This document shows, in pieces, positions 2,449 to 12,232 of a DNA stretch of 32,000 bases. The position numbers were made by a program, and so were the translations under genes. The stretch lies in the NCBI RefSeq assembly GCF_002310835.1, contig NZ_CP011041.1, positions 960,001 to 992,000 of the forward strand, written 5' to 3'. This stretch comes from Pseudoalteromonas tetraodonis (GTDB lineage: Bacteria; Pseudomonadota; Gammaproteobacteria; Enterobacterales; Alteromonadaceae). Under the pieces are notes generated by a model. That model saw nothing but the letters and a program-made list of their open reading frames with translations, ran no database searches and had not been told where the DNA came from. The first letter of the stretch is position 1. The number at the start of each line of letters is the position of its first letter.

Positions 2449-3144
2449 ATGAAAACAATCGGCATGCTCGGAGGTATGAGTTGGGAGTCAACAGCCAGCT
2501 ATTACAAAGTTTTAAACGAAGGCGTTAAAAACTCATTGGGTGGACTACATAGTGCCAAAATTTGTATGGTGAGCGTCGATTTTGCAAAAATTGAAGCGCT
2601 ACAGCATCAAGGTGATTGGCAACAAACAGCTAAGTTACTCACCAAGGCAGCTAAATCTGTAGAGGCTGGTGGTGCCGAGTTTTTACTTATTTGTACCAAC
2701 ACTATGCATAAAGTGGCCGATGAGATTGCCAGTAATATTACTATTCCTATTTTGCATATTGCCGATGCCACCGCTGAGCAACTAAAGCACGATAACATTA
2801 CGCGAGTAGGGTTGTTGGGAACGCAATTTACAATGGAGCAAAACTTTTACAAAGAGCGTTTAACTAATAAGCATAACATTGAGGTATTAATACCTGAGCC
2901 TAATGAGCGAAAGCGAGTGCACGAGGTTATTTATTCGCAGTTATGCCAAGGGATTATTGATGACGATTCGCGAGCTGATTATATACGCATTATAGAGCGA
3001 TTATTTGCACAAGGCGCGCAGGCCATCATTTTAGGCTGTACTGAAATCGCCTTGTTGGTAAAGTCACAACATACGCAGGTTCCGCTTTACGACACCACCA
3101 AAATACATGCCGAGGCAGCAGTGAAGTTAGCACTGGCAAAATAG
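2449..3144 (+). CDS. ygeA: Aspartate/glutamate racemase family protein (YgeA-like)
   Basis: MKTIGMLGGMSWESTASYYKVLNEG...LHSAKI...LICTNTMHKVAD...ILHIADAT...ILGCTEIALLV. The two catalytic Cys contexts (CTNTMH and GCTEI) and overall collinearity match the YgeA/Asp-Glu racemase family as I recall it. Confidence 0.9.
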   Translation: MKTIGMLGGMSWESTASYYKVLNEGVKNSLGGLHSAKICMVSVDFAKIEALQHQGDWQQTAKLLTKAAKSVEAGGAEFLLICTNTMHKVADEIASNITIPILHIADATAEQLKHDNITRVGLLGTQFTMEQNFYKERLTNKHNIEVLIPEPNERKRVHEVIYSQLCQGIIDDDSRADYIRIIERLFAQGAQAIILGCTEIALLVKSQHTQVPLYDTTKIHAEAAVKLALAK

Positions 3145-3160
3145 TTAAGCTTGAGATAAC

Positions 3161-3190
3161 AAAAAAACCGCCAATTGGCGGTTTTTTATT
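3161..3190. terminator. Bidirectional rho-independent terminator (after ygeA)
   Basis: AAAAAAA-CCGCCAATTGGCGG-TTTTTTATT. A perfect palindromic stem is flanked by an A-run and a T-run. Confidence 0.8.
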
Positions 3191-3218
3191 AGCAAGTAAA
3201 GCTGTTAACACGCTTATA

Positions 3219-3259
3219 TTAATGACCTTTCTCAAAGTCATTTACTTCGCGCTCGGCTT
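3219..3259 (-). pseudogene. Orphan 3' remnant of a csbD-like gene (last 12 codons + stop)
   Basis: The reverse complement reads (TAA)-A-E-R-E-V-N-D-F-E-K-G-H-TAA, the same C-terminal peptide as the intact gene at 5209-5406. An in-frame stop lies immediately upstream, so only the tail is present. It carries a synonymous GGT vs GGC difference in the Gly codon. Confidence 0.8.
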
Positions 3260-3425
3260 AACTTCCTTTAACCTATACATCTGAAGCTTTAATTATTGTA
3301 TTTTATATAGGCTTGTTTATCATATGAGGTCTATTTACAAAGGCATGTGAATATTTAAGCTTATAGGGAATCATGTAGCAACCCTCCACAAAATGTTCAC
3401 GGCCTATTTTTAAGGCTTCTTGTTT

Positions 3426-3956
3426 ATGTCATTTTTAACGACACTTAAAAAGTTTGGTAATCATATTGGTGCTTACAAAGTGCACTTGTGCCCTGAGGTG
3501 AAAGGCCAAGTTAGTGAAAAGGGCAAGCCTTTATCTAATGTGAGAATAGACAGAGTATTAAATTTTTCTGATGGCAAATGTGCTGAAGATTTCACTTACA
3601 CCGATAAGAACGGAAGTTTCTTACTACCTGAAATTAATATCCGTTCTAATCAACCAGCAGTCCCACTTGCTGAGATTTTTACTTCTCAAGCTATTTATTT
3701 ATCCTACAATCATGAAGAATATTGCCTTTGGGGTTCCAGATTGTCAGGCGCTAAATACCGAGAGGAATATGCAAAAAAATTAAGGCAATTAATAGCCGAT
3801 ACCACTGATGAAAAGGTTCTTTTTAAATTTGAGAATAAAAAAACTGAAGGCTATAAATTTGAAGCTTTAAGTATCTGTCGTTGGTCTGATGATTTTGAAG
3901 TAGTGGAAAAAAATGCTTATTTTGACCTTTCAGAAATTGAAACGGATGAAAATTAA
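3426..3956 (+). CDS. Hypothetical protein (176 aa), cassette gene 1
   Basis: The ORF track starts at TTG 3420; I prefer ATG 3426. There is no signal peptide. The stretch KGQVSEKGKPLSNVRIDRV...YTDKNGSFLLPEI weakly resembles carboxypeptidase-regulatory/prealbumin-like beta-sandwich signatures. The C-terminus is acidic. The segment is low-GC. Confidence 0.6.
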   Translation: MSFLTTLKKFGNHIGAYKVHLCPEVKGQVSEKGKPLSNVRIDRVLNFSDGKCAEDFTYTDKNGSFLLPEINIRSNQPAVPLAEIFTSQAIYLSYNHEEYCLWGSRLSGAKYREEYAKKLRQLIADTTDEKVLFKFENKKTEGYKFEALSICRWSDDFEVVEKNAYFDLSEIETDEN

Positions 3957-3988
3957 TAAAACAAAACCTAAATTATAAGGAAATATTG

Positions 3989-5137
3989 ATGAATGTTTTA
4001 AGCCCTGCAATAGCTGCTAACTTTGCTGCTATCTCATACGAAAGCCTTGATAAAAGAGGCTTAAGAGCTAATCCATATTTTGAAAGGATTAGCTCTTTAT
4101 TTTCATTCGAATCAGAATCTATAAAAGGTGTAAGTGGTTCTATTCTTGAGCGAGTTTTTAATCACTCGACCAATTTTGGCTGTATTGCAAAAGGTAAGAA
4201 GGGTGCATATGAAGATGATTATGTTTTAGCTTTACGTGGCACGGCAAAAATACGTGATGTTGTTACTGACTTACATTGTGGTTTAAGTACTTGTAGTAAT
4301 AATCAACCTGTACATGCAGGCTTCAACCATACATTTAACTCTTTCAAAAATCAGTTAGAGCTGTATTTTAAACAAAGCACTAAGAAAAAATTAAACATTC
4401 ATGTTGTAGGTCATAGTTTAGGTGGTGCTTTAGCAAACTTAGCTGCTAACTGGTTAAAGCAACGTTTTGGAGCGAATGTAAAATTATATACTTTTGGTGC
4501 GCCGCGAGTTGGTTATAATAGTTTTGCAGTAAAAACTGAGTCCGCAACAGATAATAGCATTTATCGTTGTGTACATGCAGCCGACCCAGTTCCTTTAGTG
4601 CCTGTGTGGCCATTTATGCATACGGAGCAAGAATATATTTTACACGGTGCTGCCACTATTACTCCAAAAGCACATAGTATGACTAAGGATACGCCAGGAT
4701 ATTTGCATACAGCTAGCAACTTCAAAAGTTATTCTGCTATTAACAAGGGAATGGAAAAACGAATTCAAGAAGAGGTAAGGCTTGATTATGATAGACGACT
4801 CGAATGTAGCCGCACCTCTAAATGGGCTCGGAAAATTGGTGCAGCTTTAATTACTCATTTACGTGAGACTGGTAAATTATATGCGATACAAAATCATTTT
4901 TCGAACGCTCTCACAGTATACGATCAGATAGCTAAAGCATTAGCTGATAGCATTGATTTTTCTAAAAATTGTACTAAAGATGTAAAAGGGATTTTAGGGC
5001 ATATGCTGACATTTTGTGGCTATCCATTTCAGGTGATTTCTTTTACTTACGCTTCTATTAGGCATATTTTGCAATTAATGCTTAAAAATATTTTTGCACT
5101 TGCTGGCGAAGCGCTAGCATTAGCAAAACCTTCCTAG
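3989..5137 (+). CDS. Class-3 lipase family alpha/beta hydrolase with ~150-aa C-terminal helical extension (382 aa)
   Basis: ATG 3989 lies 7 nt after AAGGA (the ORF track uses TTG 3986). The nucleophile elbow is VVGHSLGGALA. It is followed by YTFGAPRVGY...CVHAADPVPLVP...FMHTEQEY, the Ser/Asp/His arrangement typical of Lipase_3. There is no signal peptide. I do not recognise the C-terminal third. Confidence 0.85.
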   Translation: MNVLSPAIAANFAAISYESLDKRGLRANPYFERISSLFSFESESIKGVSGSILERVFNHSTNFGCIAKGKKGAYEDDYVLALRGTAKIRDVVTDLHCGLSTCSNNQPVHAGFNHTFNSFKNQLELYFKQSTKKKLNIHVVGHSLGGALANLAANWLKQRFGANVKLYTFGAPRVGYNSFAVKTESATDNSIYRCVHAADPVPLVPVWPFMHTEQEYILHGAATITPKAHSMTKDTPGYLHTASNFKSYSAINKGMEKRIQEEVRLDYDRRLECSRTSKWARKIGAALITHLRETGKLYAIQNHFSNALTVYDQIAKALADSIDFSKNCTKDVKGILGHMLTFCGYPFQVISFTYASIRHILQLMLKNIFALAGEALALAKPS

Positions 5138-5148
5138 AATTAAGGTAT

Positions 5149-5249
5149 ACAAAAAACCGCCAATTGGCGGTTTTTTATTAGCAAGTAAAGCTGTTAACAC
5201 GCTTTATTTTAATGGCCTTTCTCAAAGTCATTTACTTCGCGCTCGGCTT
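5149..5249. repeat. Right copy of 101-bp direct repeat
   Basis: See 3159-3259. This copy is continuous with the intact csbD-like gene. Confidence 0.92.
5151..5180. terminator. Bidirectional rho-independent terminator (lipase gene / csbD-like gene)
   Basis: AAAAAA-CCGCCAATTGGCGG-TTTTTTATTA sits between convergent genes ending at 5137 (+) and 5209 (-). Confidence 0.8.
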
Positions 5250-5406
5250 CCTCTTTCGATTTACCGTATTTTTGCTGAATTTTACCAACAAGCTCGGTAC
5301 GGCTACCTTCAATTTTATCTAAATCATCGTTGGTAAGATCGCCCCATTTTTGCTGCGCTTTACCTTTAAGTTCTTTCCAGTTTCCTTCGATACGATCGCT
5401 ATTCAT
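5209..5406 (-). CDS. CsbD/YjbJ-family general stress protein (65 aa)
   Basis: MNSDRIEGNWKELKGKAQQKWGDLTNDDLDKIEGSRTELVGKIQQKYG is the characteristic CsbD-like repeat pattern. AAGGAG lies 6-7 nt upstream of the ATG on the minus strand. Confidence 0.9.
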   Translation of the reverse strand: MNSDRIEGNWKELKGKAQQKWGDLTNDDLDKIEGSRTELVGKIQQKYGKSKEEAEREVNDFEKGH

Positions 5407-5693
5407 AATTAGCTCCTTATTAAGAGTGATGATTTTTCATTTTAAAAGCGTTACTAATAAAATGATTTTTAACGTTCACTTATAAAGTTGCAAAGGCTAT
5501 ACCAGAAAATAAAACTTTTAATTTCATTTATATATCAACTGCTTATGGTTTTTTGATGCGTAAAGTCTTTTAGCTGGTGGCGAGCTTTATAAAAATTCTG
5601 CAGGGTGGCTTGTAATTATTGCAGGGACTGTGACTTCAGGGGCTGTTACTTCAAGGGGGATTATTGCAAGTACACTGTGCTGGTTTTTATAAG

Positions 5694-5725
5694 TACAAAA
5701 AAAGCGAGCTATTAAAGCTCGCTTT
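5694..5725 (-). terminator. Rho-independent terminator after the permease gene
   Basis: The minus strand reads AAAGCGAGCT-TTAAT-AGCTCGCTTT followed by a T-run, 18 nt past the stop codon. Confidence 0.7.
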
Positions 5726-5742
5726 GGTGTTTAATAAAGGAA

Positions 5743-7260
5743 TTAATGTCTAAAGCTTGGCATTAGCGCAGGAATGCCTGGCAGCATACCTACCAGTGCC
5801 ATTACACCGGTTAATAACACAAACATAATAAGTGGGATGATCCAGCGGCTCATTCGTGATAAATCAGCACTTCTTTCTTTACAGCCAATAAGGCCCAAGT
5901 TATCCAAAAGCATAGTCAGTGACCAACCAAATGCAGGGTTTACTAAGCTTGAGGCAAACACCACAATAGCTGCCGACTGCGTGGTTTTACCTTCACGGGT
6001 CATTTCCATACCCGCTTCAAGTAGTGGAATAAACACCCCTACAATTAAGGCAACACATAATACTGGCTGCCAAATAGCTAAGTCCATTGGATAGCCCCAA
6101 ACACCCGCGATAATACAAAATAACGCAGTTAAAATAGCGCCTGCAGGAATAGGGCGTTTTGCAATAGCAGCAGGAACAATGTAAGTGCCCCAAGATGATG
6201 CAAAGTTAGCACCGCCTAATAGCGAGCCAAAGGTTTGTCTTGTTGATGCGCTAAGCATGGTATCGTCAATATTCATTTGTACTTTTTCAGTACGCTCTGG
6301 GTAACTAATTTTTTGAAATACTTGATGGCCTAAAAAGTCAGGCGACCACATAGCAACCGCTAAAACTGCAAAAGGAAGTACAACTACAAAGCTTTCAGCG
6401 GTTGGTAAACCAAGCATCCAACCAGTGTTTTCCCCCCACCAGTACATAGGGTTCATGTTTGGTAAGCCTGGAGCTGTATGAAACTCAAACGGTGCGCCCA
6501 ATGCAAAAGCAGTAAAACCACCAATTAAACAGCTCAGTGGCACGGCTAACCAGCGTTTTTTGTAATGCTCCAATAAAGCATAAAGTAAAATTGTGGCTAA
6601 GATTACGATAAAAGCAATATGGGTCATTTGAATTTCTTCAGCCCATGCAAACAGCTTTTTAACTTGTGAAATGGTACCCACAAAGCCTAAATAGAGGAGT
6701 AGGCCACCACACACCCCTTTACTGGTGAGCTTGGCCATGAGGCTGCCGCCTTTACTAAATGCTAATATCAATCCAAAGGCACCTATGAGTAAACCAAAGG
6801 CCATAGGGTGTCCGCCTGCGGCAACTACAATAGGAATTAATGGAATGAGTGGGCCATGAGTACCCGCTAAGTTAGCGGTCGGTAAAATAAAGCCCGAAAA
6901 TAGTAAAATAAATAGCGAAACAATTAAAAGTTCGTAGCGTACGTTTTCAAGTACAAAGCCATCACTTAAACCCAAAGGGCCTGCAAACGTGGCAGCAATG
7001 GCTGCAACCATGACTACTTTCCCTATAGTAGCGGCCATCGCAGGAATGGTGTCTTCAAATTCAAAGCGATAATCTCTAAATGGTAAATTTGGACGCCAGC
7101 GTTTTGGCTGCATAATTTGCAGTTCGTGCTCTAGGTAAGCGTCGCGGCTTTCAAACTCAGAGCTGGGCTTATGAAGATTTTCATAGCTATCGGACACGGT
7201 TTGAGTATCCGCTCCTGGTATAGCATCAGATGAATTATCATCTAGCGGCTTGGTGGTCAT
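5743..7260 (-). CDS. Polytopic inner-membrane permease (505 aa), possibly DUF3360 / NCS2-like superfamily
   Basis: A hydrophilic ~70-aa N-terminus is followed by >=10 hydrophobic segments rich in G/A/L. AGGAGA lies 5 nt upstream of the ATG. The family assignment is from memory and uncertain. Confidence 0.8.
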   Translation of the reverse strand: MTTKPLDDNSSDAIPGADTQTVSDSYENLHKPSSEFESRDAYLEHELQIMQPKRWRPNLPFRDYRFEFEDTIPAMAATIGKVVMVAAIAATFAGPLGLSDGFVLENVRYELLIVSLFILLFSGFILPTANLAGTHGPLIPLIPIVVAAGGHPMAFGLLIGAFGLILAFSKGGSLMAKLTSKGVCGGLLLYLGFVGTISQVKKLFAWAEEIQMTHIAFIVILATILLYALLEHYKKRWLAVPLSCLIGGFTAFALGAPFEFHTAPGLPNMNPMYWWGENTGWMLGLPTAESFVVVLPFAVLAVAMWSPDFLGHQVFQKISYPERTEKVQMNIDDTMLSASTRQTFGSLLGGANFASSWGTYIVPAAIAKRPIPAGAILTALFCIIAGVWGYPMDLAIWQPVLCVALIVGVFIPLLEAGMEMTREGKTTQSAAIVVFASSLVNPAFGWSLTMLLDNLGLIGCKERSADLSRMSRWIIPLIMFVLLTGVMALVGMLPGIPALMPSFRH

Positions 7261-8570: not shown

Positions 8571-9332
8571 TTAAAACGCCGCCTCTGCCACACCTTGCGC
8601 AATTACTCTGCCTTGAACAACTTTTTTTGATGATAAATTTTTTACATTAATAACCTCACCAAGTTGACCATCTTCAAGGGCAATAGCTTTAACATTAGCT
8701 GAGAAAGTTGCGGTCGTTATTTGCAGTGAAATATGCTCATTTTTATTGATTAAATACTGCTTTTCTAGGTACCGGTTGGAGATCACCGTGCCTTTATCAA
8801 TCTCGCGTTTAACGGTGAATCCAACGAGCTGGTCAATACCTGTTTCGCCTTGATGGCGGTGCTTGCCTAAATCCACGCTTTTATATTCTAAGTCTTGCTT
8901 ATTAAGCACTTTACCTCGGTTTAAAGTGTGCTTAGCAGCTACTAGGTTTATCCACACACTTACTTTGGCGCTGGCTCTAAAGCGCCAAGCAGGCGATGGG
9001 CAAGATACAGAAACACTTACTCTGCCTGCGGGTGGCGTGTGACTTTGTGAGCGAGTGATTTGCAATTCATCACAGCTTAAATTTTCGCTGCCTTTAGGAA
9101 TAAATAATTCTATATCTTGTCGCTGACTTTGCGAATTAACCGAGCGCAAATAGCTCTTAATTTCACTGTGCAAAAACTGCTGAATTTCTTTATCAAAATT
9201 AATGGGGGTGGCCATAGCATGAGCTGGCAGTAGTCCAATAGTTAAAAGCAAGCGGAAAAACCAACGCTTCCCTTGGGGAAGTTTAGCTTCCGTATGTTGG
9301 GCTGTTTTTTGCTCTTTTTTTATATAAGTCAT
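8571..9332 (-). CDS. flgA: Flagellar P-ring assembly chaperone FlgA
   Basis: 253 aa with a signal-like segment (WFFRLLLTIGLLPAHAMA). The C-terminal SAF-type region (GTVISNRYL...GQLGEVINVKNLSSKKVVQGRVIAQGVAEA) is typical of FlgA. It is divergent from flgB. Confidence 0.85.
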   Translation of the reverse strand: MTYIKKEQKTAQHTEAKLPQGKRWFFRLLLTIGLLPAHAMATPINFDKEIQQFLHSEIKSYLRSVNSQSQRQDIELFIPKGSENLSCDELQITRSQSHTPPAGRVSVSVSCPSPAWRFRASAKVSVWINLVAAKHTLNRGKVLNKQDLEYKSVDLGKHRHQGETGIDQLVGFTVKREIDKGTVISNRYLEKQYLINKNEHISLQITTATFSANVKAIALEDGQLGEVINVKNLSSKKVVQGRVIAQGVAEAAF

Positions 9333-9355
9333 TGAAAAAATATACTTTTAAAAGT

Positions 9356-9371
9356 TGGCATAAAGGTTGTT
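9356..9371 (+). promoter_or_regulatory. Candidate sigma-54 promoter for the flgB operon
   Basis: TGGCAT-AAAGG-TTGTT. The GG and the G(T) are 12 nt apart as in TGGCAC-N5-TTGCW, but the -12 element reads GT instead of GC. It lies ~65 nt upstream of the preferred flgB ATG. Confidence 0.4.
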
Positions 9372-10231: not shown

Positions 10232-10885
10232 ATGCAAGTTAATTCAGCCGTTCCAAGCGCTGCAGACGCCACAAAAAACACCACGAATATTGCCGGTAAT
10301 AGTTCTGCAGATGAAATGTCGACCATGTTTTTAGAGTTACTCGTTGCGCAAATTAGTAATCAAAATCCATTACAACCTATGGACGGCACTCAGTATGTAA
10401 GCCAGCTTGCAGAGTTTTCGAATGTTGAGTCGTTACAAAGCATTCGCCAAAACACCGCCGATGGCTTGGATTATGTCAGCAGCTTAGCGGTGCTTGAAGC
10501 CACTAATATGGTTGGTCAAACGGTTGATGTGCAAGCAAGCAGTATTGCCCTTGAGCAAGATGGCAGTGTCTCAGGCATGGTTAATTTAGGTGAAGCCGCA
10601 GACTCTGTCACTGTACAACTTTATAACCAAGATGGTGAGTTAGTTGAAGAAAAACAACTGCCTTATTCAGGAGTCGGTTCGCTGCGTTTTGAATTTGAAA
10701 ACCAAGAAGCCGGTGCGTATGCAGTCAGAGCGTATGCCACTACAGCCGAGGTGCCAAAGCAGCTTGATACTTGGTTAAGCGGTGAGGTTGAGCGTGTTTC
10801 TGTAGGTAAGTCGTTAGAAGATATTTTATTGCAAGTCGATGGTTTGGGTAATTTTGGTATCACTGAAATTAATCAAGTGGCATAA
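10232..10885 (+). CDS. flgD: Hook capping/assembly protein FlgD
   Basis: FLELLVAQISNQNPLQPMDGTQYVSQLAEFSNVESLQ is the FlgD N-domain signature. Confidence 0.92.
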   Translation: MQVNSAVPSAADATKNTTNIAGNSSADEMSTMFLELLVAQISNQNPLQPMDGTQYVSQLAEFSNVESLQSIRQNTADGLDYVSSLAVLEATNMVGQTVDVQASSIALEQDGSVSGMVNLGEAADSVTVQLYNQDGELVEEKQLPYSGVGSLRFEFENQEAGAYAVRAYATTAEVPKQLDTWLSGEVERVSVGKSLEDILLQVDGLGNFGITEINQVA

Positions 10886-10903
10886 ATAAGAGGAATAAAT
10901 AAT

Positions 10904-12232
10904 ATGTCTATGTTCAATATAGGATTAAGTGGTCTTAAAAGTACCCAAGCAGGATTAGAAGTAACCAGTAATAATATTGCTAACTCGGGTACTGCTGGTT
11001 ATAAAAATAACACTGCAGAATTTGCCGCGGTTTATAACGGTAGCCAACGCGGTGGTGTAAAAGTTGCCAATGTTAAAGAAGATTTTGTTACCGGTGGTGA
11101 AATTGTGCGCACTGGTAATGCGCTGGATATTGCTATTGATGGCCAAGGGTTTTTTGCCATATCAGAAAACGGCCGAACGGCTTACACCCAAGCTGGCCAG
11201 TTTCAGTTAGATAACGACTTAAATGTTGTTAATGCCAACGGCGGCAAACTGCAAGGCTTTGGCGTGTCTCAAGTTGATGGTGGTGATCCGACAATTGTAC
11301 CGGGTGTATTAACCGATTTAAAAATTGAAGCCTCAAACATAGAAGCGCAAGCTAGTACAAACATTAATTTTAACGGTAACTTAAGTTCTTCTAGCGACGT
11401 GATTGCTTATCCAACAGCTCCTGCGGTATTTGATCCTAAAGATGGTAGCCAATATAACTTTTCTCAATCTACCGAAGTGTTCGACTCATTAGGTAATAGC
11501 CATGTGATGACCCAGTACTTTAACCATACGGGTAGTAACGAATGGCAAGCGATGTTTTTCTTAGATGGTAAACCCCTTACTCAAGGTCAGCTCTCAGCGC
11601 TTGGTGCTACGACAGGTACTCAAGCTATTGATGATGGTGCGGGTGGTTCAATTAACGCCGGTACCATTACACTTAACTTTGATACCGATGGCCAAATGGT
11701 GCCGTTTTCAGGCGATTTAACGGCGGTTGATTTAGAAGTGCCTATTACTTCAACACCAGGTAATGCAGAAATAACCAGTGGTGCTGCAGCATTAAATATC
11801 GCACTTAAATTCGATGGCACTACGCAGTTTGGTTCAAGTTTCAGTGTTAACGAAAATGATGCCAACGGCTATACCTCAGGAGCGTTCTCTGGTGTGAAAG
11901 TTGAAGACGATGGCCGTGTATTTGCGACATTTACTAACGGTGAATCTAAATTACAAGGCCAAGTTGTACTTGCCTCGTTTGCGAACGTTGATGGTTTAGA
12001 GCAAGGCAGCAATACCGTGTGGTATCAAACTGAAGAGTCTGGCTCTGCACTCTACGGCGAGCCAGAAAGTGGCTCTTTGGGTAAATTGCTATCGGGTTCA
12101 TTTATGGGCTCAAATGTTGATATTAGTGAGCAGCTGGTTGGCTTAATGTCATTTCAACAAAATTACCAAGCCAATGCTAAAACCATCAGCAGCGCTGATG
12201 AAATGATGCAAATTTTATTTAGTAACACCTAA
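10904..12232 (+). CDS. flgE: Flagellar hook protein FlgE
   Basis: N-terminal SGLKSTQAGLEVTSNNIANSGTAGYK, then ALDIAIDGQGFFAI...YTQAGQF, and C-terminal SNVDISEQLVGLMSFQQNYQANAKTI. 442 aa. Confidence 0.93.
   Translation: MSMFNIGLSGLKSTQAGLEVTSNNIANSGTAGYKNNTAEFAAVYNGSQRGGVKVANVKEDFVTGGEIVRTGNALDIAIDGQGFFAISENGRTAYTQAGQFQLDNDLNVVNANGGKLQGFGVSQVDGGDPTIVPGVLTDLKIEASNIEAQASTNINFNGNLSSSSDVIAYPTAPAVFDPKDGSQYNFSQSTEVFDSLGNSHVMTQYFNHTGSNEWQAMFFLDGKPLTQGQLSALGATTGTQAIDDGAGGSINAGTITLNFDTDGQMVPFSGDLTAVDLEVPITSTPGNAEITSGAAALNIALKFDGTTQFGSSFSVNENDANGYTSGAFSGVKVEDDGRVFATFTNGESKLQGQVVLASFANVDGLEQGSNTVWYQTEESGSALYGEPESGSLGKLLSGSFMGSNVDISEQLVGLMSFQQNYQANAKTISSADEMMQILFSNT

Follow-up and report, generated by a model that had tools for sequence, protein, structure and literature searches.

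A 1.9-kb accessory operon between direct repeats of its own target site in Pseudoalteromonas, possibly integrated by host homologous recombination

How does a two-gene cassette come to lie between near-identical direct repeats that duplicate the 3' end of the gene next to it? This question is raised by a 1.9-kb accessory operon on an SM9913-type chromosome, whose site, the ygeA-csbD interval, is a hot spot of variation between strains. It is addressed here with a window of 32 kb, meaning the whole stretch of DNA that was analyzed, and with related loci from other strains and clades.

The repeats, the cassette and its genes

The features of the locus are as follows.
2449-3144, plus strand: ygeA-like Asp/Glu racemase gene, the left flank (Pfam Asp_Glu_race, 3.6e-46; NCBIfam PRK10200)
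3159-3259, no strand assigned: left direct repeat, made up of a terminator (3162-3187), a spacer and the orphan csbD tail
3219-3259, minus-strand sense: orphan csbD tail, the stop plus 12 codons
3260-3316, no strand assigned: junction DNA from the orphan tail to the cassette promoter region, with a joint common to all occupied loci
3317-3425, plus strand: cassette upstream region, TTTATCATAT...TACAAAGGCATGTGAA, presumed promoter or regulatory DNA, conserved in the L094, L103 and L101 cassettes
3426-3956, plus strand: gene for a DUF6795 protein of 176 aa, ATG at 3426 (Pfam DUF6795, 2e-22)
3989-5137, plus strand: gene for a 382-aa class-3 lipase/phospholipase-A1-like protein whose C-terminal domain is helical (Pfam Lipase_3, 8e-29)
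5149-5249, no strand assigned: right direct repeat, made up of a terminator (5151-5176) and the live csbD 3' end
5209-5406, minus strand: intact csbD, 65 aa, the right flank (Pfam CsbD, 5e-21)

By repeat search, MAFFT and global alignment, the two repeat copies, 101 nt each, differ by 2 indels, one in an A-run and one of a T, and by 2 substitutions. These are the differences that an earlier note on this DNA had described for a pair of near-identical direct repeats with a terminator and a csbD tail, and its observation that the only coding difference is a synonymous one, GGT versus GGC, was likewise borne out by alignment. Each copy holds a perfect 26-nt palindrome, AAAAAACCGCCAATTGGCGGTTTTTT, and after it the final 12 csbD codons with their stop; this palindrome is the bidirectional ygeA/csbD terminator, scoring as a minus-strand terminator in the left copy and recurring identically in the right one.

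The 101-nt pair is the only long repeat family that a repeat search recovered from the 32-kb window, and no further copy was detected off-site in thirteen related loci of 9-17 kb. The dispersed REP-like repeat that the earlier note had considered as an alternative was thus found neither in the window nor in these loci; the sequence is the native ygeA-csbD junction, an intergenic terminator plus a coding tail. Two further candidates were rejected. For a dif/Xer-type site, no dif-like 11-6-11 motif was seen by eye, the palindrome being a plain terminator, and the imperfect motif CTTCCT...TATAC, tentatively proposed for the inner edges of the repeats, is at chance level, with a local alignment score of 12 versus a shuffle mean of 12.7.

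The left repeat allele is a 99% match to that of empty-site strains (L083, L087 and L090), and the flank that it adjoins is the one found at empty sites. The right repeat matches the single copy of L086, L088 and L089 at 100% identity. That the copies represent different alleles, as the earlier note had supposed, is therefore confirmed by their separate occurrence in other strains, which also rules out in-situ tandem duplication; the difference would fit one copy having come with the insert.

At 3259/3260 the orphan csbD tail joins non-csbD DNA in one novel joint, ...CGCGCTCGG(C/T)TT|AACTTCCTTTAACCTATAC, which is identical in every occupied locus. In a copy of the cassette at another locus, of the L106 type and described below, the csbD-derived part is about 14 nt longer (CATCTTTCGCTTTAT), and positions 3260-3272 of the window may be degenerate csbD; an extension of the csbD tail beyond 3259 within the window had no statistical support. 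On the two sides of the site, the ygeA-like gene is found in all strains of the complex, and the exact CsbD protein occurs in 351 collection blocks; the 23 contigs on which it was read represent several states of the site. Nearby, the open reading frame at 689-1555 matches the PADLOC candidate PDC-S42.

The cargo (3260-5148) has a GC content of 35.1%, compared to 40.5% for the window, so low that it falls within the bottom 0.7% of windows of equal size; the compositional dip noticed earlier is real, yet less deep than the 30-34% estimated by eye. The first cargo gene is taken to start at ATG 3426, as in public annotations (176 aa), the open reading frame list having TTG 3420 instead. Its product was modeled as a beta-sandwich (pLDDT 76), for which structural matching gave nothing informative, and neither sequence nor fold searches of the PDB hinted at a function; the gene is often tandemly duplicated at other loci. 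The second product is predicted to be a catalytically intact class-3 lipase, with Ser143 of a GHSLGG motif, Asp199 and His residues invariant, and its model (pLDDT 85) matches fungal lipases and plant PLA1.

Database searches with the two proteins were largely uninformative as to function. Neither has a match in PADLOC-DB v2; NCBIfam returned nothing for the DUF6795 protein and only matches far below threshold for the lipase, and PHROGs returned nothing for the former and only generic esterase/lipase for the latter. Viral contigs yielded only distant lipase-domain proteins (at most 39% identity over the core) and lacked the repeat, and a literature search found no mention of DUF6795. The lipase has 1,644 homologues, those among the named matches coming mostly from marine Gammaproteobacteria, and the pairing of DUF6795 with a lipase bearing a helical C-terminal domain is widespread, again mainly in marine Gammaproteobacteria among the named matches. 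Our best guess, held with low confidence, is that the cassette is a conflict system, for instance in phage defense or as a toxin/immunity pair. The pair is a reasonable candidate for a new system of this kind, being patchy, recently transferred, adjacent to defense-like genes and given to DUF6795 duplications.

Site states in relatives and copies in other clades

Four states of the ygeA-csbD site were encountered in relatives: empty, with an ankyrin insertion, with the cassette, and with both. Empty sites consist of ygeA, one repeat and csbD within the same flanks, with the single copy seen in L083, L084, L087 and L090. The precise empty sites that the earlier note proposed to look for thus exist in close relatives, and the locus is a true insertion/deletion polymorphism. 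Where the ankyrin and cassette insertions occur together, only the left 101-nt repeat lies between them, and this, with the four site states, points to recombination inside the repeat or to recurrent insertion. The ankyrin insertion itself is not bracketed by the repeat. A pre-duplication or donor state, in which ygeA, cargo, terminator and csbD follow one another with no left copy, was not found in the species complex, and a metagenome scan with the left end of the cargo added one ankyrin-plus-cassette locus and turned up no haplotype of the donor type.

The cargo is 99.3-99.6% identical across lineages, compared to 90-96% for ygeA, DUF3360, the intergenic DNA and the flagellar flanks, which supports recent exchange of the cargo between lineages. 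The right end of the high-identity tract varies, lying at about 5215-5239, inside the right repeat, in L104 and at about 5479, some 230 nt past it, in L082; variable ends of this sort would be typical of homologous recombination.

In other clades the surroundings of the cassette differ. Lipase, terminator and csbD form one contiguous homologous block in CF6-2 and in P. gelatinilytica, at 75% nucleotide identity, near the 78.5% found for metH as a comparison. Because this block is syntenic in other clades, the right repeat copy is native DNA and not an element-borne mimic of the target. In the P. gelatinilytica-type background, the cassette of L103 is a clean 1,870-bp indel that adjoins the same terminator and csbD without duplication, L115 and L116 being empty.

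The search for the cassette at other loci, suggested by the earlier note, also led to a permuted copy at an unrelated locus in a third clade. In L105-L114, a 92%-identical copy of exactly one unit lies between a Y1_Tnp pseudogene and rnpB, with the csbD tail (the equivalent of 5202-5263) ahead of the cargo and the terminator part (5146-5196) behind the lipase. Both ends of this unit share the 10-nt sequence AAAGC(A/T)GTTA, and the copy in L106 opens at this same sequence, AAAGCWGTTA. Judged from its sequence, the copy reads as a circular permutation of the cassette opened inside the repeat, and it would fit a unit-length, possibly circular, intermediate; it may instead be a linear fragment, whose two ends would then have come to lie at almost one repeat coordinate by a coincidence of roughly a few percent. 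As judged from the junctions alone, integration of the L106 type would have used microhomology.

How the cassette may have entered

We favor, with a probability of about one half, a reading in which the cargo and one repeat, as a single unit, integrated by single-crossover homologous recombination that duplicated the homology, so that host recombination rather than an integrase was at work. At first the cassette would have been a neighbor of the csbD terminator, a position that it retains in other clades (step 1). An illegitimate joint would then have linked csbD, at a point 12-17 codons short of the stop, to cassette-upstream DNA, giving a unit of cargo, terminator and csbD tail (step 2). This unit, as a circle or as a permuted linear molecule, would have entered by single-crossover 'Campbell' or ends-in homologous recombination, pairing over about 101-115 bp of homology with the resident single copy (step 3), and the homology would thereby have been duplicated on both sides of the cargo with csbD kept intact (step 4). 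Host RecA-type recombination is the presumed engine of this series and a dedicated recombinase would be unneeded; we infer the RecA dependence, the circular form and the order of events. Loss by recombination between the repeats would return a single-copy site like the empty ones, and the repeats could serve as a short homology arm in reshuffling with the ankyrin insertion and in spread between lineages. At the L106-type locus, one unit would have inserted at a microhomology of 9-10 nt, and the model predicts a cassette-free target that reads ...CGCTAAAAAGCAGTTAGTGTTATG... between two 26-nt inverted repeats. Against this reading, neither a circular form nor an excision product was seen, and a homology of 100 bp is on the short side for RecA-dependent integration to be efficient.

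A one-off event of homology-facilitated illegitimate recombination, known as 3'-end displacement, is a somewhat unlikely alternative that would have yielded the same topology as that observed. Here a linear donor of cargo, terminator and csbD would have undergone a homologous crossover in or beyond csbD and an illegitimate joint 12-17 codons ahead of the stop of the resident csbD, by which the terminator and tail already there were displaced and orphaned, with no unit-length or circular intermediate; later spread would have been solely by ordinary homologous recombination in the flanks. The native lipase-terminator-csbD block of other clades makes such a donor fragment plausible, exchange tracts with variable right ends reach past csbD, and displacement of this kind has been proposed for orphan 3' ends at rhs loci and in T6SS arrays (PMC5361080). 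However, it leaves unexplained the single permuted unit of L105-L114, whose two ends fall at one coordinate of the repeat, and the donor-type haplotype that it calls for was not found in the complex.

The attL/attR-like reading put forward in the earlier note has the topology right, but the integrase-type element that it implies is unsupported. A version of it, a degenerate, CIME-like site-specific element with attL and attR at the csbD 3' end and an integrase located elsewhere or lost, would account for direct repeats that duplicate the 3' end of a gene and restore it, for the precise empty sites and for a left junction that is identical in two genetic backgrounds, and the 10-nt sequence at both ends of the permuted unit could be a crossover core. 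Yet no integrase, transposase or terminal inverted repeat is present in the cassette, as had been noted, or within about 8 kb of it, and in about 20 contexts the site showed, apart from the insertion sequence named below, neither an integrase or transposase (Phage_integrase, resolvase, rve) nor a larger integrase-bearing element using it. Further points against the idea are the clean indel beside the terminator in the sister clade, with no att-like duplication, exchange tracts that are not bounded by the repeats, a right copy that is native syntenic DNA and ankyrin cargo at the same site without repeat brackets, and we consider it improbable. An IS3-type insertion sequence in L082 and L104 is a secondary insertion in the loop of the left terminator.

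Single-strand mobilization by an HUH/Y1 transposase (IS200/IS605- or RAYT-type), with the terminator and the csbD-tail sequence AATGACCTTTCTCAAAGTCATT as subterminal hairpins, is very improbable: the permuted unit does directly adjoin a Y1_Tnp gene, has a hairpin near each end, lacks terminal inverted repeats of its own and a target duplication, and has ends abutting GTTA, but that Y1 gene, located outside the unit, is a truncated one of 112 or 75 aa, none lies near the window site, the tail hairpin is within conserved coding sequence, and a duplication made of native flanks on both sides, as homologous recombination predicts, would be an odd coincidence for transposition.

Returning to integration by host recombination, a stronger version, which we advance only tentatively, is that cassette plus repeat form a natural recombinase-free mobile unit that loops out as a circle by way of its 101-nt repeats, re-enters chromosomes with the single terminator-csbD-tail sequence by host homologous recombination, and now and then enters unrelated sites at microhomology. 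If this were true, a duplicated fragment of the target would act as a portable homology arm in place of an integrase, and a small conflict-type operon (DUF6795 plus lipase) could spread among Pseudoalteromonas lineages. More generally, a cargo accompanied by about 100 bp of its target may need nothing more to be gained, lost and reshuffled repeatedly at a hot spot. The locus suggests that no integrase is needed for an att-like signature, precise empty sites included, to arise and spread, and annotation pipelines that take such repeats as the mark of an integrative element could be led astray.

Comparison with known systems

CIMEs are att-flanked islands lacking integration and transfer genes (PMC6323972). 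The present locus resembles them in that direct repeats flank a recombinase-free cargo and empty sites exist, but it differs in having no cognate integrase-bearing ICE or IME at the site, in repeats that are native flanks and in a repeat-free insertion in the sister clade.

With 3'-end displacement the locus shares one homologous anchor, one illegitimate joint and an old 3' end left orphaned beside the module. The names of de Vries and Wackernagel (2002) and of Jackson (2009) are reportedly attached to homology-facilitated illegitimate recombination and 3'-end displacement. Displacement of 3' ends, or of C termini, has been proposed for rhs loci and T6SS effector-immunity arrays (Kirchberger 2017, PMC5361080). 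Unlike in these cases, the displaced csbD tail encodes the same peptide, with no toxin-tip diversification, the anchor csbD is outside the cargo system, and the permuted copy suggests a unit-length intermediate that is absent from those models.

Minimal mobile elements (Saunders & Snyder 2002), by the definition quoted in PMC3787668, are variable cassettes between conserved genes subject to homologous exchange. The likeness lies in close relatives that differ in which whole genes fill a single site between conserved neighbors, in a cassette without mobility genes and in cargo more alike between lineages than its flanks. The present cassette differs from them in that a duplicated 101-nt stretch of its own site encloses it and in that it occurs as a permuted unit at an unrelated locus; moreover, the host is Pseudoalteromonas.

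The arrangement also recalls Campbell-type integration. There, as in laboratory work with suicide or insertion vectors, one homologous crossover brings in a non-replicating circle. Both have duplicated homology around the insert, an intact target gene and reversible loss via the repeats, whereas here the insert would be a natural chromosomal cassette, in which no replicon or vector backbone was seen and for which the circle is presumed.

Repeats bracketing the cassette and states of the ygeA-csbD site

The two-gene cassette (window 3260-5148) lies between two 101-nt direct repeats at the ygeA-csbD junction. Alignment reproduced exactly the differences listed in the earlier note, namely two substitutions, one T indel and one A-run indel. 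The relevant features are as follows.

3159-3259: left direct repeat, 101 nt; terminator, spacer and orphan csbD tail
3426-3956: DUF6795 protein gene, 176 aa, co-oriented with the lipase gene
3989-5137: class-3 lipase gene, 382 aa, co-oriented with the DUF6795 gene
5149-5249: right direct repeat, 101 nt, continuous with intact csbD
5209-5406, minus strand: csbD, 65 aa, intact (Pfam CsbD)

Each repeat contains the perfect palindrome AAAAAACCGCCAATTGGCGGTTTTTT (3162-3187, unchanged at 5151-5176), which terminator scoring at 3162-3187 identified as a minus-strand intrinsic terminator, followed by a 31-nt spacer and the csbD stop with the last 12 codons; the terminator and codons claimed earlier are thus present in both copies. 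Likewise, the right copy was seen to be live and the left tail to be an orphan with a single, synonymous coding change. An imperfect hairpin, AATGACCTTTCTCAAAGTCATT, also lies within the csbD tail of each repeat (3221-3242 and 5211-5232), making two hairpins per repeat with the terminator included. The left repeat was a 99% match to the allele carried by empty-site strains, and the right was 100% identical to that of ankyrin-only strains, so that the copies differ in history, as the earlier note had proposed. No further copy of the 101-nt sequence was found in the window or 13 related loci, contrary to REP-like dispersal, and identity as a dispersed REP was rejected because the sequence is the native ygeA-csbD junction and fails the REP test. 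A CTTCCT motif tentatively noted at the inner repeat edges was indistinguishable from chance.

Exact-protein look-ups matched the window to Pseudoalteromonas sp. SM9913 (CP001796.1) and close relatives, and site states were read on contigs carrying a csbD protein identical to that of the window.

Table. States of the ygeA-csbD site
Empty site (L083, L084, L087, L090): ygeA stop, one 101-nt copy, csbD
Ankyrin-repeat gene (L086, L088, L089): inserted between ygeA and terminator; single repeat copy
Cassette with both repeats (L081, L085, L091-L093): arranged as in the window
Ankyrin gene and cassette (L100, L102): both insertions
Ankyrin gene, cassette and IS (L082, L104): IS3-type IS in the left terminator loop

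Empty sites of the form envisaged earlier (ygeA, one repeat, csbD) therefore exist, and their left flank, TAGTTAAGCTTGAGATAA..., is the same as that of the left copy in the window. The cassette is an insertion/deletion polymorphism whose empty sites are precise and keep a single repeat copy. Across every occupied locus the left junction is constant, with ...CGCGCTCGG(C/T)TT joined to AACTTCCTTTAACCTATAC. Ankyrin gene and cassette occur in all four combinations, and only the 101-nt left repeat separates the two insertions, so either recombination inside that repeat or recurrent insertion must have taken place. In agreement with the earlier note, the contexts read contained no integrase or transposase at the site, bar the IS of L082 and L104. 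This IS3-family element (reverse complement ~10240-11700; HTH and rve ORFs; ends TGAAGTGACCCC...) is secondary to the cassette, splitting the left terminator loop at the equivalent of window 3174-3176 with, as we read the sequence, an apparent 3-nt AAA duplication.

Native arrangement, recent transfer and a permuted unit

Orthologous cassettes of the same orientation directly abut the csbD terminator in Pseudoalteromonas sp. CF6-2 (L094) and P. gelatinilytica (L103). The CF6-2 lipase (P0002) is 82% identical to that of the window, and homology continues without a break over window 3395-5419, which spans the cassette promoter, the lipase gene, the terminator and csbD as far as its start, at 75% nucleotide identity, close to the divergence of metH (78.5%). 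These alignments show the right-hand lipase-terminator-csbD arrangement to be native and no mimic of the target. The P. gelatinilytica-type background is also polymorphic: L115 and L116 carry GGDEF-terminator-csbD, relative to which L103 has a clean 1,870-bp insertion between GGDEF stop and terminator, without duplication. Around cassettes in Shewanella and in other contexts, csbD and flanking repeats were absent. The clean indel and these repeat-free cassettes therefore show the duplication to be specific to the SM9913 complex and no intrinsic end structure of the cassette.

Over the 1,889 nt of cargo, the window is 99.3-99.6% identical to L082, L104 and L100, and the surrounding sequence is far more diverged.

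Table. Flank identity, window versus L082, L104 and L100
ygeA flank: 95.5%
DUF3360 gene flank: 96.2% or 90.7%
csbD-DUF3360 spacer: 92%
Flagellar genes: 95%
metH: 90%

Judged by these identities, the data show recent transfer of the cargo between lineages. The high-identity tract ended at ~5215-5239 in L104, inside the right repeat, and at ~5479 in L082, past csbD; homologous recombination best fits the movement because the endpoints vary, which a fixed crossover core would not predict. Across the csbD-DUF3360 segment, at the equivalent of window 5239-6500, L104 carries an 88-91% allele, much more divergent than that of its near-twin L082, which indicates a separate recombinational import with its left edge in the csbD tail.

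The same cassette was also found at another locus, a possibility raised in the earlier note. In another Pseudoalteromonas group (L105-L114), a 92%-identical copy has a truncated Y1_Tnp gene on one side and rnpB on the other. It aligns to window 3214-5196, from within the left repeat to within the right; the csbD tail (equivalent to 5202-5263) comes ahead of the cargo and the terminator portion (equivalent to 5146-5196) behind the lipase, and AAAGC(A/T)GTTA is common to both ends. As aligned, this copy amounts to exactly one cargo and one repeat in circular permutation, with the opening between terminator and csbD stop. Its tail extends 14 nt further into csbD than that of the window, which places the original joint ~17 codons from the csbD stop; window 3260-3272, a match not significant on its own, may be a degenerate csbD remnant. 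The simplest source of the permuted unit would be a circle or unit-length piece of the repeat-flanked form; two independent breaks at one repeat coordinate are possible but unlikely.

In L106, 26-nt inverted repeats (6723-6748 and 8817-8842; 88% complementary) flank the unit, whose insertion may have been into a REPIN-like hairpin; the adjacent Y1 gene (6342-6680) is truncated and RAYT-like, and RNase P RNA (rnpB, 8981-9358) also adjoins. An island with AAA-ATPase and Phage_integrase genes lies right of the cassette in L105 (9114-14531), where other strains have rnpB-rsmI.

We favor insertion of a cargo-terminator-tail unit by a single homologous crossover. An illegitimate joint would have linked the 3' part of csbD with sequence lying upstream of the cassette, generating the unit, which would then integrate at the resident terminator-tail by one crossover (Campbell or ends-in), duplicating ~101-115 nt of shared sequence and leaving csbD intact. 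Host recombination between the repeats could delete the cassette again, and the repeat could serve as a short arm for further exchange. The main rival, one-off homology-facilitated illegitimate recombination (HFIR) or 3'-end displacement of a linear fragment, proposed for rhs and T6SS arrays (PMC5361080), would give the same structure but leaves the permuted unit unexplained. For a cis-mobilizable element (CIME) served by an integrase in trans, the contexts read contained no supporting recombinase or sister element. For a Y1-transposase route, the one pointer is the neighboring pseudogene in L105-L114.

The DUF6795-lipase pair

At 35.1% GC, the cargo falls below the window as a whole (40.5%) and into the bottom 0.7% of segments of its length; the reported dip is thus real, though milder than first estimated. 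The lipase has a class-3 catalytic core with invariant GHSLGG Ser143, Asp199 and His residues, and its predicted model has a C-terminal helical domain of ~115 residues, with fungal lipases and plant phospholipase A1 as best structural matches. Weak fold matches (TM ~0.3) of this core and helical bundle include plant EDS1/PAD4, which share the lipase-like plus helical-domain layout. DUF6795, with a strongly conserved N-terminal motif (YKVHLCPEV), was modeled as a beta-sandwich, for which structural search returned no informative match. No signal peptide was obvious by eye on either protein.

Lipase homologues numbered 1644, and the pair has a wide but patchy distribution, in which marine Gammaproteobacteria make up most of the named hits. 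Elsewhere, two or three tandem DUF6795 copies often precede it, and this duplication is recurrent (L094 4574-5841; L097 4244-6323; L101 475-1660; Marinomonas spartinae P0250, P0256 and P0265). Within the first 300 nt the two L094 copies share ~90% identity, and beyond that ~71%; in L097 the duplication and the lipase gene overlap, and a 109-aa ORF is found at the upstream copy. We found no defence, phage or literature record for the pair; a conflict function (defence or toxin/immunity) is suggested very tentatively. A second hot spot with defence-like genes adjoins the site (PDC-S42 in the window, AbiGi in L086). In other strains this strain-variable spot, between metH and ygeA (439-2448), is empty or holds either an AbiGi gene or a DUF1240-containing set; in the window it holds two genes.

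689-1555: PDC-S42/LAPAL-family protein, 288 aa
1610-2377: protein without family hit, 255 aa

Relation to known systems

Altogether, the locus offers a clear case from nature of att-like repeats that probably arose with no integrase involved, and DUF6795-lipase is an uncharacterized, recently mobile gene pair. The att-like element first proposed is supported as an indel polymorphism with precise empty sites and not as an integrase-type element: the defining feature of an integrase-based element or CIME (as defined in PMC6323972) is missing, as neither cognate recombinase nor sister elements were found in the contexts read. An HFIR or 3'-displacement product would have a similar joint, and minimal mobile elements (PMC3787668) or hot-spot islets behave as this site does. 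The cassette topology equals the product of Campbell integration of a circle, and a circular intermediate is a testable prediction of the favored single-crossover reading.
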